The notes beneath the pieces are model-generated. The model had not been told where the DNA came from. It saw nothing but the letters and a program-made list of their open reading frames with translations, and searched no databases. A stretch of DNA of 64,000 bases from Amphiura filiformis (taxonomy: Eukaryota): NCBI RefSeq assembly GCF_039555335.1, contig NC_092633.1, forward strand, positions 21,164,334 through 21,228,333, read 5' to 3'. A program made the position numbers and the translations under genes. Of this stretch, positions 24,447-61,558 are shown piece after piece (position 1 is the stretch's first letter; each line of letters begins with the position of its first letter).

Positions 24447-24522
24447 TCTTAATTTTAATAAATTTGAGAATTTTCTAATCGGGTTCAACCTGATAATTGT
24501 TTATTAATCCATTCTACAATAG

Positions 24523-24718: not shown

Positions 24719-24774
24719 GTAAGAGCATATAGTTGTAGTTGCATGTATTGGTTTCCTGTACCTTGGTGCCAACC

Positions 24775-25150: not shown

Positions 25151-25518
25151 GAACTCTTAATATCATAGTTTTTGTCAAAGCCCTTCCCAAGTTGAAAGCC
25201 TTTTTTACTTGTGCAACAAGCTTTTTGTATACCGTACCACCTTTTCATCTCTCAAAGAGGTTTCACTGCAGTTAAGATGAAGAATTTCATTGAGATTTAC
25301 AATTTAGGCTGTTTTGATGTCTGGCGATGTCAGATGTGAGTTTTTTGTGTGGTGGATTTGGAAAAAAATAAAACAGTGAAAAAAAACCCCAGAAATTTAC
25401 TCAATCCAGCAGGAATAATGCGCAACAAGGCGCCAATTTTACGATGTGTGCTGGGGCTTTGAGACAAACTAATAAATCAAGATGGTCTAACTCTAATACT
25501 TACAAGAAAATAATACTA

Positions 25519-26540: not shown

Positions 26541-27101
26541 CTACAAGAAAAGTATACTTACCAAGAAATTGTACTGTATTACAAGTTGGGAAGGAAATAT
26601 ATGATGTGATCATGCATAATTTTCCGGCAGTCTAATAGATGTTTAGATGTCAACAGGGCTGTATGTTGTATGGCATAGCTGTCATTCTCCAGACACTTGT
26701 GATGATAAACAACTAGACTGCAGGCAATTAGTCAGATATATGTGCTGGAATGCATTAACTGAAAACTGCTGGCTCTCAAGTCTCAGCGCTTTGCCCATGA
26801 AGGATCTGCATCTTGGTCAATGAGAGATAATAGGTTAAATTAAATGATAAATAATTTACGAAAATCTTCTAGCCACATGAGTCATGGTGTCATGAGCATA
26901 TTGTAGCCTTGTTCATGTAATTATTGGTTGTAAGCCCACCTTTGGTTCTGGCTCTAAGTCACCTCTATTTTTGCTGAACCATGAAATGGTATCAGCCTAT
27001 AAGAGTGAATGTTACTAGTTTACTTACTAGCTTACTTACTAGCTTACTTACTACATGTAGCTTACTTACTAGCTTACTAACTGACTAACCATTTGGTCTG
27101 A

Positions 27102-27944
27102 AATGGACATATCTCTAAATGCCACGAAGGTATGACCCCATGAGTGGTGTCATATGAAAGAGGAAAACATAAAGAATATAATAAAAATATTTCCAAACGT
27201 CGGAGGTCATCCAGGGGTCACAGGGGTCAAAAAAGGTCATTTTAACTGAAAATGCTCCGATTGAGCTTAAATTTAAATGCAATGATCCTTGTGACATTCT
27301 AAACATGTTCAAAACATTAAAAAATTTATTTAAGGTCATTAAGGGGTCATAAAGGGGTCAAAGGTCAAGTTTTCCAAAATGCTCCAATTGAGCCGAAATT
27401 TAAATGCAATGATCCTTATGACATTCTAAACATTTAAAAAATATTTTAAAATTCATTTAAGGTCATTAAGGGGCAATAAAGGGGTCAAAGGTCAAGTTTT
27501 CAAAATGCTTCAATTGAGCTGAAATTTAAATGCAATGATCCTTATGGCATTCTTAACATGTTTTAAATATTTTAAAATTCACTTAAGGTCATTAAGGGGG
27601 TCATAAGTCAAGTTTTCAAAATGCCAGCTTCTCACACGATCAAGGTATATTAAAACGGCAATTAATGAAACAGTCTTATTAAAATTAATGCTATCCTGCA
27701 CAGTATTGCTGCTTGATCAGATCGTCACAGTCATCCGCCTAACTTATGGTACATGTACCTCGTGCCCTTGCAAAGCTGCACAGTATTGCTGCTTGATCAG
27801 ATCGTCACAGTCATCCGCCTAACTTATGGTACCTCGTGCCCTTTGCAAGGGCACAGTTGCTCTAGTTCATATTCTTTACTTTTCCTCTTTCATTAACACC
27901 AGTTGGGCGGTCATACCTTCGTAGCATTTCGATATAATGTCCAT
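27102..27944. mobile_element. TIR element carrying an internal satellite of about 125 bp (roughly 3.5 copies at 27180-27630), in MVP intron 2
   Basis: TIR 'AATGGACATATCTCTAAATGCCACGAAGGTATGACC' is mirrored by 'GGTCATACCTTCGTAGCATTTCGATATAATGTCCATT'. Internal units run 'ggtcattaaggggtcataaaggggtcaaaggtcaagttttc...aaatgcaatgatcct'. A 12-mer (tagcttacttac)n at 27005-27075 precedes it. Confidence 0.6.
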
Positions 27945-28305
27945 TACAGACTCCGGGTGACAGTGGTATAGGCCTACCACAATATACTGCCGAAGCCACA
28001 TGGTTCAGCTATGGTGTGGTTATCGCTCTAGTTTAAATATACTGGAAACAAAGGTGCACTCGGGGTATAGGCTAAGTGGTCACAAGTTACCAAATCAATG
28101 CTTTGCCCTCATATAAAAAAATATCAGTTAGAAATTGACATTCCATATACCGTACTTAAAACATTGACTAGATGATGCAAGTTACTCGTACATCGAACAT
28201 GAATGTTATACAAATTACAGAGATTTTTTTTAAAATTCAAGTCCTAGCCCCTAACCCCCAGTTATAAGCCCATATGCACCCCAGTCCCCCATCTACCCCC
28301 AGTGC

Positions 28306-28656
28306 CCGGGGGGTCCACTTCCATTGTGGCCTGTACACCATCCACAATAATCAACCTTTGAAAAGCACCCTAAACAAGGATTTAACCCTTGGTTAAAACG
28401 ATACCCTAAACATTTAACATGCGCCTGTTTTCACACCCTAAACAGGGATTTTATTCCTAGCATCAAATTTCATACCCTAAATTCCATTTCCGCGTATTAG
28501 CAATTGCAATTTTGCTACCCATTTCCCCAATTTTTCATGTTTTTGACACCCTAAACATGATATGCGCGTATCGTGCCTACCCACGAAAAACTACCCTTTT
28601 TACACGTTTTTATTATCGCGGATGGTGTACAGGCCACAATGGGAGTGACCCCCGGG
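28306..28656. mobile_element. MITE with 'accctaaaca' subrepeats (MVP intron 2). A related motif is at 28700-28870 and again at 46890-47100.
   Basis: TIR 'CCCGGGGGGTCCACTTCCATTGTGGCCTGTACACCATCC' is mirrored by 'GGATGGTGTACAGGCCACAATGGGAGTGACCCCCGGG'. The shared 45-bp core 'ttgattggcRtaaccYgaccYaccctaaaaKtaggcccgaccc' occurs at 28707 and 46892. Confidence 0.6.
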
Positions 28657-29853
28657 CCCCAGTGTGGGTTATACCAGAGTGGCTAGGCCTAAAAAAAATT
28701 GTTTGATTGGCATAACCTGACCCACCCTAAAAGTAGGCCCGACCCAACTTTTTTTTTTTTTTATATACAAAAAAAATAGTAAAATATAAAAAGAATAAAT
28801 AAAAATCAATAAATATTTAAAAAAGTTCCAAAGCCTTTATCAAACAAAATTTACAACTTAAAATATATACAAATATAACAAAGGGTGAACATATAAAGTA
28901 TCATAAATATGAAATTACAGAGAAATGATGATGGTAATTGATATATGTGCTATCTTTTTCCAAAAAGTGTAAACTGTTTCAGGTTGCTCTCAGTCAGAAT
29001 ACGCAATGACGGTATTTAAAATTGAAATTAATTGAAATTGGAGGATGGTGGGGAAATTTATATTAGAAGTAAAATAGGCATTAATTTTATTCGGAAACCC
29101 AATAAACATGTATCATTGCTTTTAAAATGCATAATATTAAACATCACAATCTTACAACTTTTTTTTAAATTTACTATGTCTGTACAACATCATACCATTT
29201 TACAGTAACGACCAGGTTGATTATTATGTTAAAATGGATTGAGTCATTTGTGGGGTTGCATACATGTAATTGATTATATGGTGTGATCATAGACTTAAAT
29301 AGATATTATGGTAGTACGACTTGAGGGTATTTTTAAAAAAACATTGTGTATTAAACTGTATGTGTGCAGTAGACAGTAACTATTATGATAGATTAGCATG
29401 TCAATAAGACAGGGGTAAAAAAAACTTGTTTCTTGTTCCCTCTCTCTTCCTTTTTTAAGGCCGCTTCAAATTTATTTATATTTTTTAATATCAATTTGAT
29501 ATCAATGATATTACACAATGTACATGATCATGATAATTATCACTAAATAATAACACTGTATAAATGTCAGTAATTCCATAAGGAATTAGTCAAATTTACA
29601 AGAAAAATTTACGTGTTATTTTTGCATGAATGCTTGAAAGGGACAACATTTTATGTTATACATAAGTTTTGATGAATTAAATTTTCCAAATATATCGGGT
29701 CACCTTCTTTGGCAAGACATGAAAAATGGCAAAACAAAATTTACCGGTTTTACAGCAATATATATATAGGGCTGAATTCTGCCAAGAAAGACATATGTTT
29801 TAAACTAACACATGATTTATTTCTAACATGTTTATTAACCATTCCTTCTGCAG

Positions 29854-30204
29854 GCTGTTGCTGCCCTCAAAGTTGTGCCAGCCAACACTGCCCTGAGACT
29901 GCGTGCAATCTTAGACTACGAAGATGACTCCGGTGAAAAGAAAGTTGCAGGAGATGAATGGCTCTTTGAAGGACCTGGAACCTACATTCCTCGTAAGGAA
30001 GTTGTGGTTGATGAGACCATCAGAGCCACAGTGGTAAAGTCCAACCAAGCGATTAAGCTCCGAGCACGTAAAGAACTTGTAGATAAAAGCGGAGAAAAGC
30101 GAGTGACCGGAGAGGAATGGTTGGAAAGGAAGATTGGTGCTTATATGCCTGGTGCATATGAAGAAGTGGTTGGAGTTGTTAATGCCTATGTACTCACAGA
30201 AAAG
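29854..30204 (+). CDS. MVP: MVP exon 3 ([61 protein letters not shown]...[35 protein letters not shown])
   Basis: Acceptor 'ttccttctgcag|GCT', donor 'GAAAAG|gtaagtat'. It spans 117 codons in phase 0-0. Confidence 0.92.
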
Positions 30205-30589
30205 GTAAGTATTTTATGTGATGCTTTCTTACAAGTGCACTCGTGAACACCAGGGTAGTACCGGGCCCAAAAGGGGGAAACATTTTCAAAACGTCCGCTG
30301 ACCCACTATGGAAATAATTTTACTGGGACAAATGCAAAATTTGCATGTTTAATGCTAAAATGGGTCAAAATTTAGAACAATTGTGGCCTAAGGCATAAAA
30401 CATGGCCAACAGAAGATATATTTTAAGCCAGATGGGGTGCAGCTTGATGCCCCTCACCTGACAGTAAGCCTCTGGTGTACACCTCAGGGGACAGTTATTT
30501 GGAGCCAGAGAAGGCCATCCCACATGACAGTACTCCTCTGGTGAATGGCTCAGGACACAGTCATGATCAGATTATTTGTCATATCTTTG

Positions 30590-30790
30590 AACCAAAAGTA
30601 ATTGTACAGGTGTGTTTAAGAGTATACAGTCAGTCTACCCTGAAGTACAAAGTACCAACGCAAACGCACACATTGTGCCGACTTTGAAGGTACGCATACC
30701 TGCCGCAGAGATGCAGCACTGCAAACTGTTTATGCGCTGTATACACGTACGTTGTTACTTTGTGCTTCAGAGTGGGCAAACTGTACATGG
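30590..30790. mobile_element. Palindromic MITE of about 160 bp in MVP intron 3; a paralog lies at 49241-49400
   Basis: 'cagtcagtctaccctgaagtacaaagtaccaacgca...gttgttactttgtgcttcagagtgggcaaactgta' shows about 85% identity to 49241-49400. Confidence 0.6.
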
Positions 30791-31074
30791 TTGTATCAGA
30801 GCTCATAAATTCATCAGGGCTTACATAAATATGAATAACATAAGAACAATGAAGGTACAATATATGGCTCAATTCTAAAACATGTAGGACAGGGAAGTAA
30901 TTGTGCTAGTATCTTTCTATCCATTTCCTGTGTACCATCTAGCCATGACCCAACTGTACAGGTAAACGTGCATTATGTGGGTGACATATCCTATGAAGAG
31001 AGTCAAATATGTACTCTTTAGCTTAATGTTGTAAAATGAAACTACATTAAGGGATCTAAAATGAGCGTTTATTG

Positions 31075-31693
31075 CGTTTCGACAGTATTTTTTGTGGGAC
31101 ATGAGAGCACCTCGGACCTATCGAATTGCATTCTGAATCTGAAGCATGTCTTTCTGATATCAAATAATTTTCATTTTTGAAAATCACAATATAATACAAA
31201 TTTTATGACAAATTATAAAAATTTGATATTTTTCAAATTTTGATATATAACAGTCCTCAAAGTAAATTATATAAATCTAATGATATATTCTTAAAGTGTA
31301 TGTAGCAGGGAGGAAAAGCCGACGGTCAATTGAAAATTTTGACCTTTCATATTGAAGATATGGATTTTTCCCAAAAAGACCTAATTTTTTTGTGTGTTTT
31401 GGGGAAAAAAATCCATATCTTCAATACGAAAGGTCAAAATTTTCAATTGATCGTCGGCTTTTCATCACACCTACATACACTTTAAGTATAAATCATCAGA
31501 TTTATAAAGTTTACTTCAAGTACTGTTAAATATCAAAAATATCAATTTTTAATGATTTGCCATAAAATGTGTATTAAATTGCGAATTTCAAAAAATCAAA
31601 ATTATTTGATATCAGAATGACATTCTTCGTATTCAGAATGCAATTCGATATGTCTGATGTGCTCGGATGTCCCAAAATAAATACTGTCCAAAC
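31075..31693. mobile_element. Hairpin element of about 620 bp with near-perfect 300-bp arms, in MVP intron 3
   Basis: The left arm starts 'cgtttcgacagtattttttgtgggacatgagagcacctcggacctatcgaattgcattctgaat' and is the reverse complement of the right arm, which ends 'attcagaatgcaattcgatatgtctgatgtgctcggatgtcccaaaataaatactgtccaaacg'. The centre is near 31385. Confidence 0.75.
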
Positions 31694-32781
31694 GTTCATA
31701 CCCCAGCCCTTAACAGTGCAAATAATATGAAAACAAGTTTAAAAAGTAGATCTCAAAGTCATATTCTTTTTTCTTTTTAATCTTACGAAAGTCTAAAAAT
31801 GTCAGCAAGTAATTTTGGATTTGTCAATCAAAACATTCAATTTAAATAAAACAATTCTAAAAGCTTATAATTTCCAGAATTGATCAAATTTAGTATAGCT
31901 TCATTTTGGACATACTATTTTGCCTGAATACTAACAACAAATGATCATAGATAATATTAAAGAGTCTAGCTGTGCTACCAATGTAGCTGAATGCAGCCAA
32001 ACTGTTTACGGGTCAATGCTTATCACAATCAATTTGTACAGAGCAAATACAAAGACTTGCTGGTTCAATTGCATTAGGACACTTCCCCATTCCAAAGCAA
32101 ATAACAGTACCCAACCTGTAAAAATTAATAACTACACAAATGCGTATCGGTGAATAATTAATCAGACACTAAATTTCTAATTATGTAATGTTTTTATCTA
32201 TTTTTGTGGTACTTTTCTTGAGATCAATAAGAAGTAGTAAATGACACAGACACAAATTAATTAATTAATTACTCAATAAAATAGATTAAATAAAAAGCAA
32301 TGGGCAAGACTTAATAAATAAAATGAATTATGATAAATTATGTAATAAGTTATTGCTTTACTTACCTCAATATATTTGCATATTATAAACAGTGCTTTTA
32401 ATTGGGCAATCAACAGAATAGGAAGAAAAATCCATCACATCACAAGTGATAGCACTATTTTTTACATGTTAAGGAACCCTTTTTTCATGTTTTTGCTGTA
32501 TTTTATGTATGAACCTGTATTTTTAACATGTTTTTATGTATAAATATATACAAGAAATACAGTTAAAACTTTCCAGAACTAGAACAGTATATACAAGAAA
32601 TACAGTTAAAACTGTATTTTTTTATGTGGACTTAATATTTACACATTGCATGTTTTGTTTATTAATCTGGCAAATAAAATGATATGATACAATAATTGGA
32701 AATATAAGATTGCTATGATAACATAGACACCAAATAGACTGTTTATTTTAATAATAAATACATTATGTTGTTTGTTTACAG

Positions 32782-32907
32782 AAAGCATTACATATGCGTG
32801 CTGTACGCACCTTCAAGGATGGCCAAGGTGAAGTAAGGAAGAATGGAGAGGAGTGGCTTATTAAATGCACACAAGCAGATGCACACATTCCTAATGTATA
32901 TGAAGAG
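32782..32907 (+). CDS. MVP: MVP exon 4 (KALHMRAVRTFKDGQGEVRKNGEEWLIKCTQADAHIPNVYEE)
   Basis: Acceptor 'tgtttgtttacag|AAA', donor 'GAAGAG|gtaagcat'. It spans 42 codons and matches human TALHLRARRNFRD...GEEWLV...HVPDVHEE. Confidence 0.9.
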
Positions 32908-32957
32908 GTAAGCATTGAAAAGGACATTCACAATACAAACCATCCTTAGGCATGTTA

Positions 32958-33241
32958 GGAACCAGTTACAAACACTTGTAACAGGGGGCCTGATGCAAAA
33001 AGAAAAAATCAGATTTTGTTTTCAGGGCCCCCTTTTGGACCTAAATTTATTTTCAACCCCCCCTTTTGGCCATGAAAAATCAACCTCAACCACATAGGAA
33101 ATAGTCTAAACTCATGTTCTACGAGAAAAAAATAAGGTGACATTTTTAAAGGCCCCTTCATAGGGTTTTAAAAATTCAGGGCTCCCCTTTTACATCAGCC
33201 CCCCCCCGCACAGCGCACTACAAGTGTTTGTGAACGGTCCC
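32958..33241. mobile_element. Second copy of the GGGACCGTTCACAAACACTTGT MITE family, in MVP intron 4, with TTA TSD
   Basis: See feature 21356-21627. Both copies share the 'gggggcctga/ttttggacc' interior. Confidence 0.7.
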
Positions 33242-34235
33242 TTAACATTATTGTCCATAGGGTCTGCTATGTTGTTAGAAACTGGATTCTCAATGTCCAC
33301 TTCATGGCATAATGTCGCAATTTATATTTAGTGCAGATTTATAAATATTTGCTTTTGACTGGAATGGTATGTAAAATATTCAAGCAAGGTCACTTCTTGA
33401 AAAGTAGTGTCAAGACATAACATTTGTGATGCAATAAAACAGAACAAATTGTTTGCTGTGTAAAAATAGGATTATAACATTTTTGACTTATATTTGAAGG
33501 ATATCATATGCTGAAAATCCCATTAAAATTGGAATTAGACACTTGTAAGATATGGTCAATTTTTGAAAACAGAGAAATAGATATGAAAGACTAAGACCTA
33601 TTCTTAACTCAAATTGATTTTATCCGCAATTATAAACAACTTATTTTGCTTGAATTCTTCACACATTTTTACAGGATGAAAATAGTATGTATTTCTCCAG
33701 TTCTGTATTAAAAATTTGAAGGAAACAAAATACCAAAAAATGGGATCTTTTAAACAGGGAGGAAAGACTCTGGTCCAATGGGCTATTGAAAAAAGAGGGA
33801 TGATAAGGCCTAAGAAAAATAATGTTATGTTTCCTGTAAAAAAAAATTGTATCCATTCTTTAAAACAAAAGAATAAAAAAAATGTTGACCAGTGAAAGCA
33901 CTCCAATGAGTTTACCAAATTTAAATAGCATAGGCGTTTAATTTTGCTTTCTATTTATGTTTACTGCTATATATTGAATATACATCATTATAAAATATAA
34001 TAGGTTGTGGTTGTTTTTCTGGTATTAACATTTAAATCTATGTATACAAATCACATGGCAATAAATAGGAACAACAAGTTTTTCTTTCTTTCAAAAAGTT
34101 GGTAAAATTTGTACTGACTTTCGGCACATTTTTACACTTGAGATTATCGAGGTGAACTGGTTTTCAAGAATACACATGTGCATTTTCTGTGCAATTTCAT
34201 ATCTGAGCTAACTCTCTTTAATATCACTATTGTAG

Positions 34236-34346
34236 GTAGTAGGAGTGACTCAAATCACCACAATGAGCAACCGTCAGTACTGTGTCATCTTAGATCCTGT
34301 TGGAGCTGATGGAAAACCACAACTAGGAAACAAAAAACTTATCAAG
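34236..34346 (+). CDS. MVP: MVP exon 5 ([37 protein letters not shown])
   Basis: Acceptor 'cactattgtag|GTA', donor 'ATCAAG|gtaagtgt'. It spans 37 codons and matches human [18 protein letters not shown]. Confidence 0.9.
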
Positions 34347-34679
34347 GTAAGTGTTGTGGTGTACGCGCGTGGGCGAGATAGATAGGGAGTGGGCAAACTT
34401 ATCCAAACATTGGTACTTTTATGTGTTTCTCTCTTTCACCCACTCTTCCTCTGCTTGTGTTGTGTGTTTTTATATTTGACATGTTGCTTGTTTGTTCTTT
34501 GGTGTTTGATTTCATAAGTATTACTGTCACCCATAGCTTCGTCTCCCTGGAAATTAAAATTACCTTATTATTCTAGAAACAATAATAGAGAATTAAAAAT
34601 TGTTCAATCCTCATATAATTGAAACTCTGTGAGCAACATATACAGACTTGACTTATATTTTGTTTTATTTAACCTGGTA

Positions 34680-34905
34680 GATCATTCATTGTTGAAACTC
34701 TGCTCTCCCTTGATGCCCAGAGACCATGGTGAGGTGTACAAACAGCCAGGTGTTCCCCAGATCGGAACTGGCTGTGAAGCCATTGTCATCCACTGCATCT
34801 CTCCCACAATTCAAATACTGTAATGAAGTTTGCCCCAGCCAGGGATCGAACCAGGACCTCCTGCACTAAAGTCAAAGACCACAACCACTGGGTCATGCCT
34901 CTCTC
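34680..34905 (-). mobile_element. tRNA-derived SINE (box A TGACCCAGTGG, box B GGTTCGATCCC) in MVP intron 5
   Basis: The minus strand reads 'GGCATGACCCAGTGGTTGTGGTCTTTGACTTTAGTGCAGGAGGTCCTGGTTCGATCCCTGGCTGGGGCAAAC...'. ORF 34629-34823 is an artefact of the body. Confidence 0.5.
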
Positions 34906-34985
34906 TCTAATCAAATTGAGTAAAATGTTTCTATGTTAACTTACAGTGTAATTTTGACGAATAAATCTTTTTCATTTGTGAACAG

Positions 34986-35111
34986 GGTGAGAAGTCATTT
35001 TTCCTTCAGCCTGGAGAGCGACTGGAGAAAGGTATTCAGAATGTGTATGTGATGGGTGAGGACGAGGGTCTGATTCTGAGAGCACAGGAAGCCTTCAAAG
35101 ATACAGATGCT
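34986..35111 (+). CDS. MVP: MVP exon 6 ([42 protein letters not shown])
   Basis: Acceptor 'tgtgaacag|GGT', donor 'GATGCT|gtgagtaa'. It matches human [23 protein letters not shown]. Confidence 0.9.
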
Positions 35112-35360
35112 GTGAGTAACTATTCCATCCCAATATGGGCATCAAAATTAACACATACTTACTGTTTTTATCAGTGTTAAATTGCCACAACAGTATTTTG
35201 TGATGAAGATTAGCACTTGATCCTGATCAGATGCGTTCCATTCCGAGCCAAAATAATATGAAGTAATTCATATTTTTTTAAGTGCAGTTTGTTATCAAAT
35301 GATTATATCAGTGATGTTCTGTATGGACATATTTAATTGTTTAAATTATTTCTATTTTAG

Positions 35361-35510
35361 GACAAAGACAGACTACCTGGAGACAAATGGATGATCAGAG
35401 GACCAAAGGAATATGTGCCACCTGTAGAAGTAGAGGTTGTTTCACAAAGAAAGGCAATTCCCCTGGATGAAAATGAGGGTATCTACATCAGGGATACTAA
35501 GTCTGGAAAG
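35361..35510 (+). CDS. MVP: MVP exon 7 ([50 protein letters not shown])
   Basis: Acceptor 'tttctattttag|GAC', donor 'GGAAAG|gtaaggaa'. It matches human [19 protein letters not shown]. Confidence 0.9.
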
Positions 35511-35939
35511 GTAAGGAACACAATGGTTACAAACAGTGAGCATTAGTAATCCAACTATATCAACCCTCTAATTGTTTCAAGCCAGGCACATATCCAGTGT
35601 TCCAAGGGGTCATTTTAGAATTTTGTCTGGGTTGAAGGGGAAGCAGTTACCAAAAAAAGAGCCACTTTTAAGGAAAATTTCATTCTTTCCATCATTATTT
35701 CATCTAAAGATGTATATCTAGGGGAAGTTTACCCTGCCAACAACTGATTATACCACTTCTTGAAGCAATGTGATCTTTGTGCCTTGAGGATATGAAAACT
35801 GAATAATTACAGGATTAAGTTGCTTAAAGAATCGGCTAATTGGCAATAATATAAAAGATGTGCTTTTATATAATATAATAAAGTCTGCGGCAGAGAAGAA
35901 CAGCAGTTGTTTACATTTTGAGAGCGTGCACAGCGTAAA

Positions 35940-36010
35940 CACGGAAGTGGGGTTCTGATTGGCTGACAATCAGAGCAACATACTGATAATCTGATTGGCT
36001 GATTACGTTG
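35940..36010. promoter_or_regulatory. ETS-like CGGAAGT plus two inverted CCAAT boxes (ctgATTGGctga) in MVP intron 7, about 200 bp upstream of exon 8
   Basis: The sequence is 'acGGAAGTggggttctgATTGGctgacaatcagagcaacatactgataatctgATTGGctgattacg'. It uses the same motif set as the putative MVP promoter, 'gctgATTGGttgATTAGG...CAGGAAGT'. Confidence 0.35.
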
Positions 36011-36213
36011 GTCGGCGCAGATCGGTGCATTTGAAGGGAACTCAAAGCTCCATGTATGTCGCTCATTAACAGGGCGCTTGCGTCAATCTGAGCAAAGGAC
36101 GGGCGTTCTTCTCTGAAACCAAGTGTAGTGTCACCCTAATATCCCCCTTCCCTTTCCTGCATAAAGTAAAACAAAAAAAATCCACATACTCACATTATGA
36201 TATTGTATTACAG

Positions 36214-36452
36214 GTCCGTGCAATCGCTGGTGAAACCTACATGCTAAACCAAGATGAGGAACTGTGGCAGAAGGAACTCCCACCAGCTGTAGAGAGTCTC
36301 TTGCAGAGTGCAAAGGATCCCTTAGCTGATAGAAGTGATCGTTCATCCAGCAGTTCCTCTTCAAGGGCAAGAGATAGGACAAAAGTAGTGACTTTCAGGG
36401 TACCACACAATGCAGCTGTGCAGATTTATGATTACAAAGAAAAGAAAGCAAG
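36214..36452 (+). CDS. MVP: MVP exon 8 ([79 protein letters not shown]+AG)
   Basis: Acceptor 'tgtattacag|GTC', donor 'GCAAG|gtaagga' (exon end phase 2). Position is anchored to ORF 36241-36456. It matches human [24 protein letters not shown]...[19 protein letters not shown]. Confidence 0.9.
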
Positions 36453-36972
36453 GTAAGGAGAATAAATGTATTATGGGTGTCTGTGACCATGTTTGGCATT
36501 GCATGACACTCATGGAGGACAAAATAGTGGTCCTATGGATGTTAGTGTAACATGCTGTTCCTGTAATGTGTGCGGGCCATACGCTTCATGCGCAAACCAT
36601 TGAACAACTGAAGCTTAAAATATCCTCTCCTGATAAATCCTAGAGATACTTTATTTTGGTCCCCATATTCAACAACCCAGTATGGAGGAATTACCTTAGT
36701 ATTGTATAATAGCTATTTCTTTTATTTCCAAACATCAGTTTCAAAAAATAAATTACAATCCCAACTTTTACTTCAACCATCTTTGATGGTTTTCTGTTTT
36801 CTGAAAACTTATATGGCTTGGCATTATTATATCAGCAAAACAAATTCCATGCTGTGGTGGAATTATCATTTAACCTCAGCTGATGGTCTGATAATATGCA
36901 GTGAGTAGTCCATACATTTGACATAGTCTTGTTTTCCTTACACAAATATTTTTTTAAATCTTAATATAACAG

Positions 36973-37170
36973 AGTTGTGTTTGGACCAGAGCTAGTCATG
37001 TTGGGCCCTGACGAGCAGTTTACACAGCTGAGCCTGTCAGGTGGCAAGCCAAAGAGACCTAATGTCATCAAATCTCTGTGCCTTCTACTGGGTCCAGATT
37101 TCTGTACTGATATCATTACTATTGAGACATCTGACCATGCCAGACTACAGCTTCAACTGTCTTATAATTG
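36973..37170 (+). CDS. MVP: MVP exon 9 ((R)[65 protein letters not shown]+TG)
   Basis: Acceptor 'taatataacag|A', donor 'AATTG|gtatgtat' (exon end phase 2). Position is anchored to ORF 36977-37291. It matches human [29 protein letters not shown]...[32 protein letters not shown]. Confidence 0.9.
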
Positions 37171-37940
37171 GTATGTATTCAATCTTGGTATTGACGGATT
37201 TCACAAGAGACACAAGTGTTACTGTTCTATAAAAAAATTAACATGCCCAAACTTTATTGGTCAACCATTAAATGAAAACCTTCATACATAAATATATTCA
37301 TGTTCATAGCAATTTAATTTGTTAATGAAGGGCTTTTTTTTTCAAACTTCACAAAATTATAATTAATGTTTATACTTTGATCATAATATATTATTTTGTT
37401 CTTGTGATATCTCATCAGTAGCATCACATAATAGTAATTCAAGTCCTATAATTTGTCTACTTTCTTTAACATACAAGTCAACTAATAGCATTCTTAACAT
37501 GGGTCTACTTTTTGGCATAATGGTAAAAGCCTAACATTTCCTGCCTATTACAAGCTGACCAAACTATAGGAAACTTGGAGACTGTGTACATAATTTTTCA
37601 GTTCCCTGTTACATTGAATTAACTGTTTTAGCCAATCTTTTATTTCTACTTTCTTGATATAAATGTACAAATTTAATGTATAAAAATAATAAGTTTCTAT
37701 GTGTTCTGTGTAGAGCAGATGATGCACATTGGGATTATCTTTATACAAGCATTTAAATGTCTGCAGCAAAAGCAGCTGTATAAACTTTTCAAATAGACAA
37801 ACATTTTATCAGCATGTTTGGACAAGTCCATTGAGTTAAATGAAATACTGTAAAATGCACACAAGTGTTGAGTCTTGAGTTTGTCCATTACCTCATCACT
37901 TTCTCATATCTACTACGTATTTGTTTTTTGTTTGTTTCAG

Positions 37941-38085
37941 GCATTTTGAGGTTGCTAACAAGGAAGATCCCAAGGAAGCAGCCAAACTGTTTAGTGTACC
38001 AGATTTTGTGGGTGATGCCTGCAAGGCTATTGCTTCAAGAATCAGAGGAGCTGTAGCTGGAGTACAGTTTGATGACTTTCATAAG
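37941..38085 (+). CDS. MVP: MVP exon 10 ((W)[48 protein letters not shown])
   Basis: Acceptor 'ttgtttgtttcag|G' completes TGG. Donor is 'CATAAG|gttagaaa'. Position is anchored to ORF 37921-38109. It is near-identical to human HFEV...[35 protein letters not shown]. Confidence 0.9.
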
Positions 38086-38807
38086 GTTAGAAAACAAATC
38101 TCACTTTAAACAGGTAGCCCCATCTGGCCAGTTCTCCACAGAAGAACTGACAATACACCTGTTACTTTGATGACAGGCAGAACAGAATTTATATGGATAA
38201 ATTTTAACCTTGACGAATTCCACAAGGAACTTGAACCAAAAGTGGGGCTTTCACTTTAAATCACATTAGGGACACAAGCTTGCACATTCAACATCAACCT
38301 GGATTTTATGTAACTACGTTCTTATTGCTCAGTTGTGATTATGATGCAGATGTAATATACGGTCCTAGTAAGTTGAAAATGAGAGCGGTCATTTGATGAG
38401 AAATAAACCCCCCCCCACACACACACACCCACCCACCCAACACACACACACATCACAAAATGGTATTTGGGAGATGTTTTTAATGTGCTTAGTTGGCAAA
38501 CGTTGGCTGCAACTTGCAAATGGTCAAATTAGTCATGAAAATGTCTCAAGTAGACCTTTTTTCTGACAGTTAGGAAAGAAATTTTGCGATAAAAAACACA
38601 AGCAAACAAAATCATTTGTTGAGGGATATATTCTAAAATAGTGTAATATTATGATTTTATGATTTGTAGAGGGGTCATCTCTGGATTGGATGGCTAGAAA
38701 AGGGAGTCGTTATAACCACACAAAGATAACTAAATAATACATAGTGATATCAAGAAGTGGCCACATAATATTTAATTAATATCGATCATTTATTATATTT
38801 CAAACAG

Positions 38808-39019
38808 AACTCTGCCAAAATCATCCGAGCCTCCGTGTTTGGCCTAGATGACAAGATGAAAGTGCGTGACAGGTTTCTGTTCCCTCAGAATAACCTAGTG
38901 TTCACCAGCATTGATATCCAGTCTGTGGAACCAGTGGACCAGAGAACCAGAGATTCCTTGCAGAAGTCTGTGCAGCTTGCCATTGAGATCACAACCAACT
39001 CTCAGGAAGCTGCTGCAAG
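38808..39019 (+). CDS. MVP: MVP exon 11 ([70 protein letters not shown]+AG)
   Basis: Acceptor 'atatttcaaacag|AAC', donor 'GCAAG|gtaactag' (exon end phase 2). Position is anchored to ORF 38835-39023. It matches human NSARIIRTAVFGF...[48 protein letters not shown]. Confidence 0.9.
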
Positions 39020-39732
39020 GTAACTAGTGACATGGAAATGAACTAGTCTACATTAAACCATGGTGTATGGTGCATTTGCCATTTTGAACATTTCCTCTTT
39101 TTGAGGAATGATTAAATACCTTTTGGTGGAAGAGTGACAATGAATGATACATTTGTTTTAAATTTAGTTGAGCTTGAATTTCTGGAATCACTGGTCGGGC
39201 CGGTGAAACCCCCGTCGCTATACCAGTCGGTGATCATGTGGTTGGCACCGGATTATAGAAAGCATCAATACTTTTCTAGATATTGATAATTTTGTAAATG
39301 ATACCTTGATATTTTTTTTCCCAAATTGCTATTCTGAGTAATGGGCCAATTAGTTTTCTACCTTACACAGGATAGTATAGGGATTATCATAGTTCAACTG
39401 TTATTTATTGATTAAATAAACCCCTTTTTTAATAAGTACTAGGATTTGAAAGTCCACTTAGTCCCACAGTCAGATACCATGAAATTAAGAATTCCAAAAT
39501 TCATTTTTTTAAGGGAATGTCATCTTTAAAGGCCTATAGAACTCAAAAACATGTCTGGCGACTTGTTCCGGGTTCTGTTGGAGCTGGTCACATATTGTAT
39601 TCTGAATGCATGTAATTTGACAGAACACTAAGTTCAGTGGCCTGAATAGGAGATTGTTAAAGAGATTCTTCTTAAAACACCTGTTGGTAAAATAAAACTA
39701 TATTTCTGATACACATTATTTCTTATAAACAG

Positions 39733-39976
39733 ACATGAAGCAGAGCGTCTTGAACAGGAGGCGAAGGGTCGTCTTGAACGTCAGAAGATTATTGATGAAG
39801 CAGAGGCAGAGAAAGCTCGTAAAGAGCTCCTGGAACTGCAGGCCAACAGTGCAGCTGTTGAGAGTACTGGTCAAGCTAAGGCAGAGGCCCAGTCTCGTGC
39901 GGAGGCAGCCCGTATTGAAGGTGAAGCAGCAGTAGAACAAGCCAAGCTTAAGGCTGAGGCTAGCAAGATTGATGCT
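39733..39976 (+). CDS. MVP: MVP exon 12 ((R)[81 protein letters not shown]), start of the cap-helix coiled coil
   Basis: Acceptor 'tcttataaacag|A', donor 'GATGCT|gtaagttg'. ORF 39735-39935 is the +1 frame of this exon and is an artefact. It matches human [65 protein letters not shown]. Confidence 0.9.
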
Positions 39977-40377
39977 GTAAGTTGCAGATTAATTCTTATT
40001 GATAGTGAACGTATCTTCTTAACACTAAATTGTTTACAGATACTCATTAAAGCCTCAACCTGACTATTGGTTACCAAATAAGGAAGAATGGAAATGTAAA
40101 GAGTCATTTTTAAACCCTGAACTGAAATCAATTATATTCCATCATTTTTAACATCTTAGATCATGACATGTGAAAACTACCATGTGGAACATAAATATTA
40201 TTAATCCTACCAGTTTACAGTTTGACAGGGCCCCATCCAGATCTTGTAAATTAATCTCCTTTCATGAATACTAATGATTTAGTTTTTTGCCTTTACCTAT
40301 CTGTGACTAAATCTAGCCTTGCCATAATTGAGTCTCTTTTTCATTGACTGAATCTCGAAATCATATTTTTTATTCAG

Positions 40378-40566
40378 GAATCTGAGCTGGAGCGCCTAAC
40401 CAGAGCTAGGGAAGCTGAAACCAAATATGTCAGGGAACAGAATGAGTTGGAGATCTCTAAGTCCAAGGATATGTCTGAAATTGAGACACAGAAATTCAAG
40501 AACATGGTGACTTCGATTGGAGCTGACACCATTAAGGCCATCGCTATGTCAGGACCAGAGATGCAG
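40378..40566 (+). CDS. MVP: MVP exon 13 (ESELERLTRAREAETKYVREQNELEISKSKDMSEIETQKFKNMVTSIGADTIKAIAMSGPEMQ)
   Basis: Acceptor 'ttttttattcag|GAA', donor 'ATGCAG|gtaggttt'. It spans 63 codons and matches human ...[26 protein letters not shown]. Confidence 0.9.
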
Positions 40567-40589
40567 GTAGGTTTCCATATTGATAATAT

Positions 40590-40960
40590 TAGTGTAGTGT
40601 TACATGTAGGTAATTAATGTTTTCATGCATGCAAAACAATTGAAATTCCCTTACACAGGAAGGTGTGCGCCATCCTGCGCTTTCCTGTGCTAGCCTTCTT
40701 TTGTTAAAATCCTGGGCAGGGTGTATCACTGATGCATATAATCCATCCGTTTTATGACCGAGCTTTCCTGAGGCGCGCGCTTCTTTCTGTGTGAAAACGT
40801 GGTAGGGTATTTCAATATGAGCCCTTATATACCTGGGTAGAGAGTAGGAGAGGTAAAGCACCTTACTCATGGGTACAGCACATATGGCCAAAGCGGGACT
40901 TGAACCCACAATCTCACGATCATGAGGCCTCTGCTCTACCCTGGACCACATATTGTAGAC
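40590..40960 (-). mobile_element. tRNA-derived SINE in MVP intron 13
   Basis: The minus strand reads 'GTGGTCCAGGGTAGAGCAGAGGCCTCATGATCGTGAGATTGTGGGTTCAAGTCCCGC...'. ORF 40589-40951 ('VEQRPHDREIVGSSPALA...') is the typical spurious translation. Confidence 0.5.
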
Positions 40961-41092
40961 CTGAAATCTTGCTTCATTATTGCTTTATGAAAATTTCTAA
41001 GAGACAATTAGGAGACCATTATAAGTAAAACACATTTGCAAAGTTATAAATTCACTTTAACAGTTTTATTGTAATCATTTTATCTTATCCAG

Positions 41093-41242
41093 GTGAAACT
41101 TCTGAAGTCTTTGGGCCTCAAGTCAACATTGATTACAGATGGTTCCAATCCCATCAACCTGTTCAACACAGCTTCTGGTCTCATTGGAGGTATTCCTGCT
41201 GTGACCTCCAAACCTGGTCCAGATGACAGTGATGAAGAGTAA
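41093..41242 (+). CDS. MVP: MVP exon 14, terminal ([49 protein letters not shown]), TAA stop at 41240-41242
   Basis: Acceptor 'ttatcttatccag|GTG'. It matches human [32 protein letters not shown]. The acidic tail is short, and no canonical AATAAA was found within about 600 bp downstream. Confidence 0.9.
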
Positions 41243-50924: not shown

Positions 50925-50936
50925 GAACGGACACAC

Positions 50937-50999
<63 letters not shown>

Positions 51000-55477: not shown

Positions 55478-55756
55478 GACTGTTTAAAGCAGAATTGGAG
55501 TGTTACCTTAGCCCTGCTGGTATTGATTATCGTGGTACCATGTCGACGGACATTGACGGTGCAGAATGCCTGATATGGGACGATACGTCGCAGCAATATA
55601 ATTCACTTAATTTTCTATACGCCGGGCTCGGTTCTCACAACTACTGCCGCAATCCGGATCAAGACCCTACTGGACCGTGGTGCCTCGTAGCAAATGAAAA
55701 CGGATACCAATATTGCGATATTGGTACCCGGACTGAGACTTTTTGCGACTGGTTAG
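55478..55756 (+). CDS. Kringle-domain exon, phase 1-1 (..ELECYLSPAGIDYRGTMSTDIDGAECLIWDDTSQQYNSLNFLYAGLGSHNYCRNPDQDPTGPWCLVANENGYQYCDIGTRTETFCDW)
   Basis: The kringle signature is present: C-x-x-x-x-G-x-x-YRGT-x-S-x-T ... NYCRNPD ... PWC ... YCDI ... C. The acceptor is 'tttaccttag|GA' and the donor 'TGGTTAG|gtaagatc'. Position is anchored to ORF 55495-55779. Confidence 0.8.
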
Positions 55757-57529
55757 GTAAGATCGAATTTGCTTATTAATTTTTTTCCAATGCGCATTTT
55801 TGCCCCGGGATTTTTACATTGGCCCGAGCTATATAACTTCATCCCGGAGGTGGGGCATGCACTGAAAACTGAATGTGCGATCGTGCGGGCACTGCGCATT
55901 AACCTCTTTTTGAACTCTTATCGCCCAATCATCTCGATTCGCCTTTAAGTTAAAAAGAATTTCATTCTAGTCATTGCTAGTGAAAGAAACCTAGATTTTG
56001 TCATTGTCAATGCGCATACCATCAATGCGTACTCTCGACAAATTACCGATGGCCAATGATTATTTTTGCAAATCAACGCATAACCAAGTCGAAACAAGAG
56101 GTGTTTTTATTACAATTTTAAATAAATATAGATTAACAATCGAAAAGTGTTCTAATCATTATTAGTCCCACAATATCAATCCAGAGGATGACAGGTCATT
56201 AGTTCTCACCTGCTTTCTTAATTATTCATTTAACCTTATGATTTCAACAAATGTACCAATCTTCAAATGTTTGGTCAGAACTTCATCAGGAGACTGGTAT
56301 TAAGGAAGGTTTTTTTATTTCAAACTCTAATCGTGACCCGCAGGTCAAATTGCTAGAATTGTACATTAAACACACCTAAACAGACACAATGCAATTTGCA
56401 GGCAGCAGTTTAATCAGCGCCAATATTGCAACATTGAAACAAACAACTATACAAACATCCAATCCAACCCAACCCAACCACATCCCCCAAGTTAAACCCA
56501 AGTTCGGAATCGGTGACCTTTTGGACACTTGACCCCAAAACTTATCGGTTTGTCTCTGATAAAGGAAGTAATGTACTGCTTCTTTCTTCTCGGTTTTGTC
56601 TTTGGTTGAGACAAGTAACTGCCTCAGAGTTTGATGGTTTAAAACAACCTCTGGTTCCATAACCGCCGAAAATCCTTCGTAGGGCTTGTGCCCGGGGCTT
56701 GTGCCCTCCAGATCTGAAGGCACTGCTACCAAAGCCATTTGTAGTCATAAGAGCTACCCGCTCCAGCTTGTCCGGGTCCATGTCTTGCCATGCTCTCACA
56801 GTACCAGTTTCTAGAACCACATCTACTGGCAGAACCTTCGTCCATACTGCAGTCCACCTTTGGAGTAGTCAGAGACATATCTGACAACGGCGCACCACCC
56901 TTCAAGAGCAGAGTGCATAAGCATCTTATTTCTCGTGTCTGATGGTTTGCTGTACCCTTTCATTCTTGTTGTCCCTAAGCTGCTGTGAACCACTGGCATG
57001 ACTGGTCCGATCACTAAGTGTGTTGTCCTGTTCCAAACGAGCTAGAATAATTCTCAACGCTTTGTAAACGGGTGCCGAGGTCAAAAGAACTGTGACATAT
57101 CTTAATATCGTAATTCTTCGTCCTCCTCAACTATTTATTTCTTTATTCGCTCAGCGCATTGGCGACGTGGTCGTGGCTAACAATTTTATACAATCACGTG
57201 ATTGTCCCGATGCTGATCACAATGCATGGTTTAAGCGGAATGTCGTTCTTGTGGACTTGCGCAACTCATAAAATTTGGGTTGGTTTTCGGTGGTAGGTAA
57301 CAAATGTTTATACTCAACTCTGTTAATACCACCCTCTTTCTCAATTTCAAGAAGTACATATGTTAATTGTTTCTTGTTCTTACTGCACTGTTTGGATCCT
57401 TTTTACCAAAGTCCATCTTGGTATACACCTAGGTTTCATTATCATTGAGGTATAGGACTTTTTATTTTTTCGGAGAAGAGCAGGTAAGGCAACTACTTGA
57501 TTATATTTCTACATGTTCATACTACATAC

Positions 57530-57705
57530 TCTGAAAATTTTAGAAAATTCGCACGAGTCCGTTTTTTTAAATCACATTTTGTTCCTAAAATGGGGGTCAT
57601 AGCGCCCTCAACGGGCACTCTCTCCATAGGGCTACATGTAAAGACCAGTTATAGACAAATGGCCCTAAAATAAAACGGACTCGTGCGAATTTCCTCAAAT
57701 TTTGC
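57530..57705. mobile_element. MITE of about 175 bp in the inter-kringle intron
   Basis: TIR 'GAAAATTCGCACGAGTCCGTTTTT' is mirrored by 'AAAACGGACTCGTGCGAATTTCC'. Confidence 0.6.
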
Positions 57706-58487
57706 ATATGATGTATATTTAACATCTGGAATGTAATGCAAGTGATGTCGTTGCTGCTCTTCTAAATTCATTTTTAAAATGTCCGCCCCAGACCAAGGTG
57801 TATATTTTGGTGTCACTAAGAAGTTTCTCACACGTGCTATGGTATTCTTCGCTATTATATTCTTCGCTAATATGGATTGATTTTCTGAAGCTGTTGCACA
57901 GCTTTCCTCTCCCCTTAGAAAGGTTAGGGCGGCTTAAAAGGTTGACTACGTTAGCTTTCAGGCTAGTCGCACCTGGTGGTAGTTTGCGACATGTTGGTTT
58001 GGAAGATGTAACCATGGTAACAATGTCAGCAACATGTATTCCTAACTTGGGTTGCCGGTCTCCTGATGAAGGGCATAATTTGAGGTACGTCTTAATTTTG
58101 TGTTGAGATCATAGTCTACCAACACAAATGAATTTCCATGCTACCTGCTATCTTAGTTTGCATATTTCAAGCGCACATAATACCATCAAATGATCATTAT
58201 AATGTTATATATTTATGAATCCTGCTTAGGCTGTTAAAGTGACCGGGTATATATAAATAATAAATTTCGGATTTGTATAGCGCCTTTTTCCCGATCTTTC
58301 TCTGCCGTGGTGAATCATCACAATCAGATCGCATCAACTGCCGCAGACCTATCCGCACTTAGATTGTAACATCCACCAATTTTCAATGCATCTCCACAAA
58401 TTCCATTGGGTGAAGGAAGTTTCTTTTTATAACCAAACAACTAATCACCGATTTTTCTTTTGACATTCAATATTTCTTAATGAACAG

Positions 58488-58736
58488 TCAGAGTAGACCC
58501 GGAGTGTTTCATAGAAACTACAGGTGAGGATTATCGTGGTGATGTTTCAACTGCGAGCGGTACACCCTGCATTGTATGGAATGTCTTCACCCTTCAAACT
58601 CTCGGGGGTCTTGGTAATCACAACTCCTGTCGCAATCCGGATGGAGACCCGGACGGAGCGTGGTGCTTTACATCCTTGGAGGGTGGATATGATTATTGTG
58701 ACATTGGTACGGCAAGTAACGAGTGCGCGGTAATAG
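58488..58736 (+). CDS. Second kringle-domain exon, phase 1-1 (..VDPECFIETTGEDYRGDVSTASGTPCIVWNVFTLQTLGGLGNHNSCRNPDGDPDGAWCFTSLEGGYDYCDIGTASNECAVI)
   Basis: It has the same motif set. The acceptor is 'aatgaacag|TC' and the donor 'GTAATAG|gtaagatc', matching the first kringle donor 'TAG|gtaagatc'. ORF 58524-58733 is an off-frame artefact. Confidence 0.8.
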
Positions 58737-58804
58737 GTAAGATCTCAGACAAAATATGCAAGTGTATGGCTCATTATTGAAGAGATTCATCAGGAATACA
58801 ATAT

Positions 58805-61558
58805 TCAAATTTCAAAGTTTTTCTTAGTAAAATTCCAATAAAAAACTCACGTTTTCCAGACAGTTTCGGCAATCCACTCTGTTGCCTTTATCAATGGTGT
58901 ATGCCAATCGATCCTTTGGTGGATGGTATGACGTCATCGGAAGATGATGACGCCACTGAATCAATTCGTCGGGTGCATCACATACTGGTCTATCTTGAAT
59001 TTTTGACTTTTCTGAGAAAATTGGTATATAGTTCTTTTTTACGAAGCTCTTCTAATTCAACAAATTACAGACCTCAATTTTTCCTAAATAATTAGTTATA
59101 AAATATTAAATTTGAACTATCTATGATTTTTACAAAATACGTTTTTCACATACTGATCTATCTCGAAAAAACACGCATTTATAGAAAATCTCAATTGAAA
59201 ATCTGCGTATTAAGTTTACCTTTCTATAATTTAATTAGATTATGGATTTTCATGAATGTGGTTTTAAATTAAAGCATATCCTTAACAGATTTATTTAAGT
59301 GGAATCTTTAATTATATTTACGTATGCAATATTGCTTAAAACTACACATAAGTTGTAGTTCTGTATGTGAAATAGTTAATTTCCCGATATCGTATTTAAA
59401 GTGCATTACATACTGGTCTATCTCGATAAGCTTCGAGATAGACCAGTATGTGATGCGTCTAAAGTCACGTCACCGATCGCGAACTTGAGATAGCCCACAA
59501 GATAGACCAGTATGTGATGCACTTTAAATACGTTATAGGGAAATTAACTATTTCACATACAGAACTACAACTTTAGTGAAGTTTTAAGCAATATTGCATA
59601 CGTAAATATAATTCAAGATTCCACTTAAATACTTCTTATAAGTATATGATTTAATTTAAAACCACTTTCATGAAAATCCATAGTCTTATTAAATAATAGA
59701 AAAGTAAACTTAATACGAAGATTTTCAATTGCGTTTTTCTCGAAACAAGTGTTTTTCGAGATAGACCAGTATGTGATGCGTCCGACGAATTGGTCATAAA
59801 CGTGACTCAGTTGGTAGGCCCCTCGTCGCCGTTCATTAGGTTCTCTTTCATTACTCCGATGATGAAAAGACCTATGAAAAACTTGATAAAGACCCAACAC
59901 CTAGATTTAAGCGCAAATTAGTAGGTATGCTTTCAGAGCTTAAAAAAGAGAAAAAGATCACTGAGGAGCAATAATAAAGATTTATACCCCAAAACAGAAA
60001 ACATCCCCCGGGTATACGCTACTCCAAAAATTCATGAGCCGAATGTGCCGCTCCGTCCAATAGTGGATTATACGGGGTCGATCGGGTATGCGACGTCACG
60101 AGCATTAGCGGACATCCTGTCCCCCCTTGTAGGAAATACCCACAGCATGTAAAAAATTTCGCAAGATCTCGCTGAAGAAATGACTGTAATTTACATTGAG
60201 GAGTGCTGTTTTATAGTATGAGCTTGGAACGGTCCATGGATTTCCCATGGATTAGCATGTGTCCCTCACGGACCAACCTGGGTAAACAAACAAACAAACA
60301 AACAAACAAACAAGATGAAGTGTTCGTATCACACGACGTTGTATCACTATTTACTAACGTTCCCATCCCCAAAGCGCTTGAAATTGTGAAACAGAGATTA
60401 ACTAATGACAAAGCCCTTGCTACACGCACTAACCTCTCGGTTGAATGATGACATTATGAATTTGCTCGAGTTCATCCTGGCTACTTCTATATCGGGATCA
60501 GTTGTACAGCCAAACATTTTGGGCGGCTATGGGCAGCCCAGTTTCCCCGATTATCTCTAACATTGTCATGGAACACTTAGAACTTAGTAACGGCTCCCAT
60601 TAATTGTAAACCGAGACTGTTCAAGAGATATGTAGATGACATTTTAGAAATTGTCAAGAAAGACTCAGAAAAACTACTCACTGAGCATCTCAACAAAGTG
60701 GATGAAAGATGGAGGAAAGCGGGTCTATACCATTTCTGGACACCCTTATAGTGCGTAAGCCAGACGGCAGTGTCAAACTTTTGGTTTACAGAAATGCAAC
60801 GCACACAGACTGAACTTCAATTCCGCCCACCCATTACATCAAAAACTAGGGGTTGTGAGAACTTTATTGGACAGAAAAGACAAAATTGTAACTGAACAGG
60901 AGGACAAGAAAATAGAGGAAGAACACATAAGGAAAGCGCTACCCCAACTGATTGATAAGGTTAAAAAGGAAAAACAGCAACCCAAGAAAAAGACCACCAA
61001 TAAGACATCTGAGAACAAAACTAGGATCAATGTTACGCTCCCCTATATTGAGGGAATTACGGAGCGTGTTCAACGAATCTTACGCATCCACAACAGCGCA
61101 TCCACAACATCGCGTCGTCAGTGAAACCTCACACTAGTTTAATACGGCTTTTAGTCCATCCTAAGCACAAGGTTGCTACGGACGACAAAACTGGCGTCAT
61201 ATATGAAATTGCTGGCCACAATTGCCAAAAAACTTATGTAGGTACTCGAAAAAAGGAGCATAAAGTTGAATCTGAAAAAAGGCTAGTAAAGGTAAAGAAA
61301 ATCATATCATAAACTGGGACAATTCAAAAATCCTTGCTATGGACGACACCAGAAACACCAGATAGGGAGTCGATCTGGGTTACGTTTATGACCAATTGAT
61401 TCAGAAGGCGTCATCATCTTCCGATGACGTCATACCATCCACCAAAGGATCGATTGGCATACACCATTGATAAAGGCAACAGAGTGGATTGCCAAAACTG
61501 TCTGGAAAACGTGAGGTTTTTATTGGAATTTTACTAAGAAAAACTTGGAAATCTGTAT
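58805..61558 (+). mobile_element. Degenerate Penelope-like element (PLE): RT plus GIY-YIG endonuclease, flanked by terminal inverted repeats of about 190 bp (pLTR-like), with an internal 2 x 350-bp inverted repeat at 59090-59790
   Basis: RT motifs are read with frameshifts and stops between about 59990 and 61120: 'LPKIHEPNVPLRPIVDYTGS', 'DEVFVSHDVVSLFTNVPI' and 'RYVDDILEI'. The GIY-YIG motif 'GVIYEIAGHNCQKTYVGTRKK' is in ORF 61121-61312. Terminal IRs at 58805-58995 and 61380-61558 are inverted; ORFs 58901 and 61401 both begin MPIDPLVDGMTSSEDDDA. Confidence 0.75.

Follow-up and report, generated by a model that had tools for sequence, protein, structure and literature searches.

The window analysed here is a 64,000-nucleotide stretch of Amphiura filiformis contig NC_092633.1 (RefSeq assembly GCF_039555335.1). 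It contains two exons, called K1 and K2, each of which encodes a kringle. The best explanation, with a probability of roughly 0.6, is that they are adjacent module exons of a working gene that is specific to the lineage and codes for a secreted, disulfide-rich kringle protein. A working gene is favoured because the open reading frames (ORFs) are intact, all twelve cysteines are kept and the four splice sites are canonical and matched in phase. The comparisons of the two sequences also lend good support to a tandem duplication of one exon, together with its donor site, as the likely origin of the pair.

The K1 acceptor AG occupies positions 55476-7 at the end of a pyrimidine-rich stretch (tgtttctttaccttAG, ending ctttaccttAG), and the exon closes with TGG TTA G/GTAAGATC, where the slash marks the splice boundary and the donor starts at 55757. 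The K2 acceptor AG is found at 58486-7 (ttcttaatgaacAG, ending aatgaacAG) and the 3' end of this exon reads GTA ATA G/GTAAGATC, with the donor starting at 58737. All four predicted sites, as read from the sequence, are canonical AG/GT sites of compatible phase. Each exon begins with two nucleotides and ends with one nucleotide of a split codon, so that phase 1 introns lie on either side, and both kringle ORFs are open, lacking in-frame stops. The predicted junction of K1 with K2 (55756/58488) has the sequence TGGTTAG/TCAGAGTAGAC (in a shorter form, TGGTTAG/TCAGAGTA) and is in frame, giving ...FCDWL-V-RVDPEC... on translation. The original prediction, made from the sequence of the window, had described two symmetric class 1-1 kringle exons. 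It is correct to the base, in the AG/GT sites, in the overhangs and in the in-frame join.

The Pfam Kringle family (PF00051, curated cut-off 34.3 bits) matches K1 with 62.1 bits (E 6.4e-17) and K2 with 48.2 bits (E 1.4e-12), both well over the cut-off. Each kringle has six cysteines, with spacings of 21/25/11/10/9 in K1 and 20/19/11/10/8 in K2. The motifs YRG(T/D), CRNPD, WC and YCDI previously ascribed to both exons, and the aberrant NSCRNPDG of K2, can all be read in the translations: K1 has YRGT, NYCRNPD, PWC and YCDI, and K2 has YRGD, NSCRNPDG, AWC and YCDI. An AlphaFold2 model of the pair has a mean predicted local distance difference test score (pLDDT) of 79.6 with confident kringle cores in both halves, and its best Foldseek matches, at a probability of 1.00, are plasminogen, the NK2 fragment of HGF, angiostatin and prothrombin. 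A sequence search of the PDB likewise places the kringles of plasminogen, HGF, angiostatin and prothrombin at the top overall. Thus both exons are predicted to encode the kringle fold. They are the only kringle-like ORFs that a six-frame motif scan finds in the window; there is no third kringle.

Exon duplication had been suggested originally from the identity of the donor sites. The donors share the 11-mer TAGGTAAGATC, which occurs exactly twice in the 64 kb when both strands are counted, once at each donor. Shuffled sequences give 0.06 occurrences expected by chance, and none of 100 shuffles contained two copies. Four positions that do not follow the consensus (T at -3 and ATC at +6 to +8) are the same in both donors and were plausibly inherited; no such preference is seen among the donors of the major vault protein gene, which lies in this window too. 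The kringles themselves also bear out a duplication, their amino-acid identity being 47-48%. They were compared within a set of 895 kringles, consisting of 893 extracted from the retrieved relatives plus K1 and K2. The best match of K2 in this set is K1, with 74.3 bits against 67.4 bits for the runner-up; in the reverse direction, K2 ranks third among the matches of K1 (76.3, 74.7 and 74.3 bits). The motif CDIGT is common to K1 and K2 and is found in 0 of the 893 other kringles. Similarity is kept at the synonymous level as well, the same codon being used at 27 of the 38 residues identical between K1 and K2, where 15.5-18.9 would be expected. The nonsynonymous divergence (dN) of the pair is 0.50 and the synonymous divergence (dS) is 0.85-0.98, showing that the synonymous sites are not saturated. 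Past the donors, the intron flanks of K1 and K2 cannot be aligned, in agreement with a dS near 0.9. K2 would thus have arisen from K1, or both from one ancestor, by tandem duplication of the exon with its donor site, after which divergence would have brought the copies down to about 48% amino-acid identity with no loss among the twelve cysteines.

Table 1. Positions of the kringle exons and of other features in the window (a slash marks a splice boundary)
Feature	Positions	Strand	Remarks
Kringle exon K1	55478..55756	+	279 nt, phase 1-1; Pfam Kringle match; peptide (x)LFKAELECYLSPAGIDYRGT...NYCRNPDQDPTGPWC...YQYCDIGTRTETFCDWL(x)
K1 donor 11-mer	55754..55764	+	TAG/GTAAGATC; one of two occurrences in the window
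Predicted phase-1 intron between K1 and K2	55757..58487	+	2731 nt; donor GTAAGATC, acceptor ttcttaatgaacAG
Kringle exon K2	58488..58736	+	249 nt, phase 1-1; Pfam Kringle match; peptide (x)RVDPECFIETTGEDYRGD...NHNSCRNPDGDPDGAWC...YDYCDIGTASNECAVI(x)
K2 donor 11-mer	58734..58744	+	TAG/GTAAGATC; identical to the K1 donor
Left inverted arm of retroelement	58803..58954	-	152 nt, 97% complementary to 61407-61558
Reverse-transcriptase ORF of retroelement	59855..61303 (about)	+	Decayed, frameshifted; followed by a GIY-YIG-like stretch (...GVIYEIAGHNCQKTYVGTRKKEH...)
Right terminal arm of retroelement	61407..61558	+	Directly after the endonuclease-like stretch
Major vault protein gene	23003..41240	+	Located with five full-length major vault proteins as tblastn queries; the matches contain Pfam Vault families

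Exon shuffling classically operates on class 1-1 modules (PMC8001218). With phase-1 introns at both domain boundaries and a tandem duplication, K1 and K2 are a textbook instance of the class 1-1 modules of Patthy, from which they differ in no respect. Because each kringle is bounded by phase-1 introns, such exons can be joined, duplicated or deleted with no change of frame. According to the proposed mechanism, each exon would encode one self-folding kringle between phase-1 introns, and both would be spliced and translated. A signal-peptide exon would precede them within 41.3-55.4 kb, and at least one short terminal exon would follow, either beyond the retroelement that lies downstream of K2 or beyond 64 kb. 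A further domain may be encoded outside the window. By analogy with other kringles, the protein would likely function in the extracellular binding of proteins or of lysine-type ligands.

When 1.84 billion cluster representatives were searched exhaustively with HMMER, 3099 matches were obtained. The best of these are echinoderm and hemichordate proteins of Diadema, Saccoglossus, Ptychodera, Glandiceps and Amphiura, which carry pipeline names such as 'apolipoprotein(a)-like', 'plasminogen-like' and 'prothrombin-like'. The architectures of the relatives comprise kringles only, astacin-Kr-Kr, EGF-Kr-Kr-FA58C, Fn2-Kr and coiled coil-Kr-Kr (Kr, kringle). Among the nearest are Ptychodera flava XP_070547881 (P0386), Glandiceps talaboti XP_077986277 (P0346, astacin-Kr-Kr) and Amphiura filiformis XP_072049112 (P0335, EGF-Kr-Kr-FA58C), and multi-kringle proteins of Saccoglossus and Diadema are also close. 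These mosaics resemble the pair in having tandem kringles with short linkers and are 44-48% identical to it over both kringles. Both kringles of the Ptychodera protein are single phase 1-1 exons. In the Glandiceps gene the first kringle exon is of phase 1-1 and ends in TTAG/GTAAG, as K1 does, and the second kringle is terminal. However, none of the mosaics is an ortholog, their astacin, EGF, FA58C and coiled-coil partners are not found in the window, and K2 differs from their kringles in being shorter and in having a serine before Cys3.

The kringles of vertebrate plasminogen, angiostatin, HGF and prothrombin have the same fold and disulfide pattern as K1 and K2. A DxD motif after CRNP, read from the sequence in both exons, is also shared with the vertebrate plasminogen-type kringles. 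The identity to the vertebrate proteins is only about 30-36%, however, and the window has neither an upstream PAN/apple exon nor a protease exon. Furthermore, each kringle of vertebrate plasminogen is divided between two exons, but K1 and K2 are each encoded by one.

Single-exon kringles are present on at least seven contigs of a related assembly, JAAUXV01 (GCA_013332995.1), which is 98% identical to the window in amino acids and 88% in nucleotides in one exon of the major vault protein gene. Its kringle exons either reach a phase-1 donor one to three codons past the final cysteine or stop directly after that cysteine. Together with the Ptychodera and Glandiceps genes, they show that the one-exon, phase-1 design of a kringle is normal in the lineage. 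Among the matches listed, these contigs contain only paralogous kringles, 38-48% identical to those of the window, with no similarity to the window in DNA and no ortholog. One contig (L033, JAAUXV010067833.1) has two or three tandem kringle exons, at 484-804, about 1205-1477 and 1847-2143, showing that duplication of kringle exons recurs in the lineage. Two of these exons have almost the same sequence immediately before the kringle (IILNYCSLFIKDPVECYT), and the last exon stops directly after the final cysteine.

The kringle pair represents the ordinary way of building invertebrate multi-kringle genes. If expressed, the gene would be one more lineage-specific member of the large and poorly studied kringle expansions in echinoderm- and hemichordate-like genomes, and a clean example of the tandem duplication of a class 1-1 module with its donor site carried along. 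No current view is challenged by it. Its practical value lies in annotation, in that a gene model should be sought at K1-K2.

The 5' exons of the gene are confined to 41.3-55.4 kb, because the major vault protein gene on the same strand ends at about 41.2 kb. A Pfam scan of plus-strand ORF segments of at least 40 amino acids, covering 42-64 kb, found no domain besides the two kringles. No further exon outside K1 and K2 was found when 273 kringle-bearing relatives, among them proteins with PAN, Frizzled, WSC, CUB, LDLa, astacin, EGF, Fn2 and FA58C domains, were compared with the whole window by tblastn. Many of these queries match a half-kringle-like peptide encoded on the minus strand in an intron of the major vault protein gene (36451-36564, ...ITGTACYTNIHRTTILSSMSVMQCQTWSQTPIIH); the best E-value over the 273 queries is 0.009, which is not significant. 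A coding-potential scan using the codon usage of the major vault protein gene is uninformative, because K1 and K2 themselves score negative.

The original prediction had offered an HGF/plasminogen-like, ROR-like or Kremen-like gene, and this part of it is not borne out. Similarity of the kringles alone cannot name the family, because the kringles of plasminogen, Kremen and ROR all score 47-54 bits against K1 in the PDB sequence search (Kremen1 54, ROR1/2 47-48, the first kringle of plasminogen 48). The architecture has to be considered instead. ROR proteins have an Ig domain and a Frizzled cysteine-rich domain upstream of a single kringle, which is followed by a transmembrane segment and a kinase. 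In Kremen proteins, the only kringle is N-terminal and precedes WSC and CUB domains. Both layouts are excluded by the two tandem kringles, even though the single kringles of Kremen and ROR are as similar to K1 as those of plasminogen. In addition, Pfam and tblastn find no Ig or Frizzled exon upstream of K1, and no WSC or CUB domain at 58.7-64 kb, a limited downstream stretch. In HGF and plasminogen, a PAN domain is N-terminal to the kringles and a trypsin-like protease is C-terminal. The absence of PAN from the closed upstream interval argues against this type: there is no Pfam match to PAN/apple on the plus strand at 42-55.4 kb and none by tblastn with PAN-containing relatives. The Pfam scan detects no trypsin-like protease domain at 58.7-64 kb, though one could be encoded beyond the window. 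An astacin-kringle protease of the Glandiceps type was rejected as well, since the closed upstream interval has no astacin domain, either by Pfam or by tblastn with the relatives P0346 and P0252. EGF is absent upstream by tblastn and by Pfam, the latter being limited to the ORF segments described above while EGF exons are short, and the window has no FA58C (discoidin) domain. The nearest relatives are the multi-kringle mosaics.

It is conceivable, though improbable, that the coding sequence ends with K2 and that the GTAAGATC donor of this exon is an unused leftover copied from K1. A compact gene of signal peptide, K1 and K2 would then lie wholly inside the window, and its protein would end in ...NECAVIGKISDKICKCMAHY with the stop at 58778-58780. 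Relatives in which a kringle is final are frequent, such as Glandiceps P0346 and the JAAUXV01 contigs L033 and L042, and without splicing the frame of K2 stays open for only 14 codons past the donor (...AVIGKISDKICKCMAHY) before reaching that stop. In those relatives, however, the stop comes directly after the last cysteine, whereas K2 has the form of an internal exon, in which three further codons lead up to a good phase-1 donor, like L013, L033a, L037, L055 and both Ptychodera exons. The read-through tail would also bring in two unpaired cysteines. We read an AATAAA at about 58837, but it is inside the arm of the inserted retroelement. A working gene in which K2 is internal does not need a long continuation. 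In the two-kringle gene of Ptychodera (P0386), the last exon, following a phase-1 kringle exon, contributes only two nucleotides and a stop codon. Extension of the gene past 64 kb, which had been considered probable, is accordingly possible and not required.

Several results weigh against a working gene. Some of them are compatible with a relic, that is, a recently inactivated gene or stranded fragment which is no longer expressed and has not yet acquired disabling mutations. Such a fate is judged unlikely, but it deserves to be taken seriously. The 14 kb that separate K1 from the major vault protein gene yielded no 5' exon or other domain, and a search of 40-55.5 kb for a first exon with an ATG, a hydrophobic core and a phase-1 donor gave no signal peptide by strict criteria. 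Nor was a terminal exon found within the window. The earlier statement that the window has no recognisable exon for a signal peptide, protease or kinase is thus upheld by the Pfam, tblastn and signal-peptide scans. A relaxed signal-peptide scan gave four weak candidates, including 43104-43161 and 47932-48016, which are not distinguishable from chance. K2 is atypical. Serine takes the place of the usual core aromatic residue (Y/F) before Cys3, a substitution found in 10 of 806 kringles, and the loop from Cys2 to Cys3 is short, with 19 residues, a spacing of 19 or less being found in 49 of 792 kringles. The dN/dS ratio of 0.5-0.6 indicates only moderate constraint. No ortholog has been found: none of the 1.84 billion cluster representatives is more than 48% identical to the kringle pair. 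Conserved gene order was not detected either, since the 10 kb that follow the major vault protein gene of Asterias amurensis, and likewise that of Antedon mediterranea, contain no kringle gene. Finally, the surroundings of the exons are rich in repeats and mobile elements, with tandem and foldback repeats upstream and a retroelement inserted close to the K2 donor.

On the other hand, a relic would have had to preserve two open reading frames, twelve cysteines, the YRG, CRNPD and WC motifs and four canonical splice sites of compatible phase, and the model of the pair is predicted to fold with confident kringle cores. The missing signal-peptide exon is weak evidence, since such short exons escape detection by homology. 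Another view is that the pair, placed between repeat and retroelement sequence, is a free-standing class 1-1 cassette whose partner exons were lost or never existed at this locus, an exon-shuffling intermediate that a neighbouring gene might capture. Or else it may form the core of a secreted two-kringle protein that is very young and restricted to its lineage, orthologs being absent beyond the genus. This is a rather remote alternative, slightly more so than a terminal K2.

The retroelement starts at 58803, which is 66 nucleotides past the K2 donor. Its stitched reverse-transcriptase fragments match Pfam RVT_1 with an E-value of 5.1e-7. There is only a weak hint of a GIY-YIG endonuclease (SegE_GIY-YIG, E 0.076), with GVIYEI...YVGT visible by eye. 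The motifs SLFTNVP and YVDDIL are taken by us to be Penelope-like. The original prediction had placed a Penelope-like element about 70 bp past the K2 donor. Its position and its nature as a retroelement with a reverse transcriptase hold, and the label 'Penelope-like' is reasonable and only partly verified. An Rfam scan of the element, with E-values up to 1, detected no hammerhead ribozyme or other RNA family. An internal inverted repeat (59167-59423 and 59500-59756; 257 nucleotides, 90% complementary, with a 76-nucleotide spacer) is situated between the left arm and the reverse-transcriptase ORF.

With mobile-element or repeat sequence on both sides, class 1-1 modules and no recognisable partner exons, the kringle pair might also be regarded as part of a gene that a mobile element has carried here, representing exon shuffling in progress and not a resident gene. 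This evidence is circumstantial, and the idea is very unlikely to be correct. Direct repeats, target-site duplications and element termini are all lacking on the flanks of 55.4-58.8 kb, and the arms of the retroelement enclose only its own sequence (58803-61558). Moreover, the intron between K1 and K2 is kept, which excludes a retrocopy. This intron contains a 35-nucleotide inverted repeat (57534-57703; 100-nucleotide spacer, 91% complementary), whose core 23-mer has no further copy in the window, and the minus-strand ORFs within the intron have no Pfam match.

The major vault protein gene upstream is complete, with at least 14 coding exons, and is separate from the kringle gene. Its product has an identity of 66-70% with the echinoderm and hemichordate proteins and is about equally close to those of sea stars, crinoids and acorn worms. 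The best full-length match is a transcript assembled from run ERR6349665, with about 77% identity as the mean over all tblastn segments and 67-91% per exon. Because this best match averages only about 77%, the proteins of the genome itself appear to be absent from the searched protein database. In Asterias amurensis (L006) and Antedon mediterranea (L007), an LDLa-TSP1-trypsin gene is situated head-to-head upstream of the major vault protein gene. A tblastx comparison of the flanks of the major vault protein genes of these two species with the window gave no match and no trace of the LDLa-TSP1-trypsin gene, showing that the local gene order is not shared.

Two ORF fragments, at 299-709 on the minus strand and 13001-13390 on the plus strand, look by eye like putative reverse transcriptases of the long interspersed nuclear element type (for example ...FVDFYKAFDSV...). 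The interval of 41.3-55.4 kb contains a tandem duplication, nested foldback repeats and microsatellites. The tandem duplication, upstream of K1 (50035-51383 and 52626-54039), has a period of about 2.6 kb and an identity of 90-99%, and a tRNA scan of it found no tRNA gene. Between its copies there is a perfect two-copy tandem repeat with a 54-nucleotide unit (52114-52222). Nested inverted repeats at 48631-49688, with arms of 48-81 nucleotides that are 77-94% complementary, have the look of a foldback element or of a miniature inverted-repeat transposable element.

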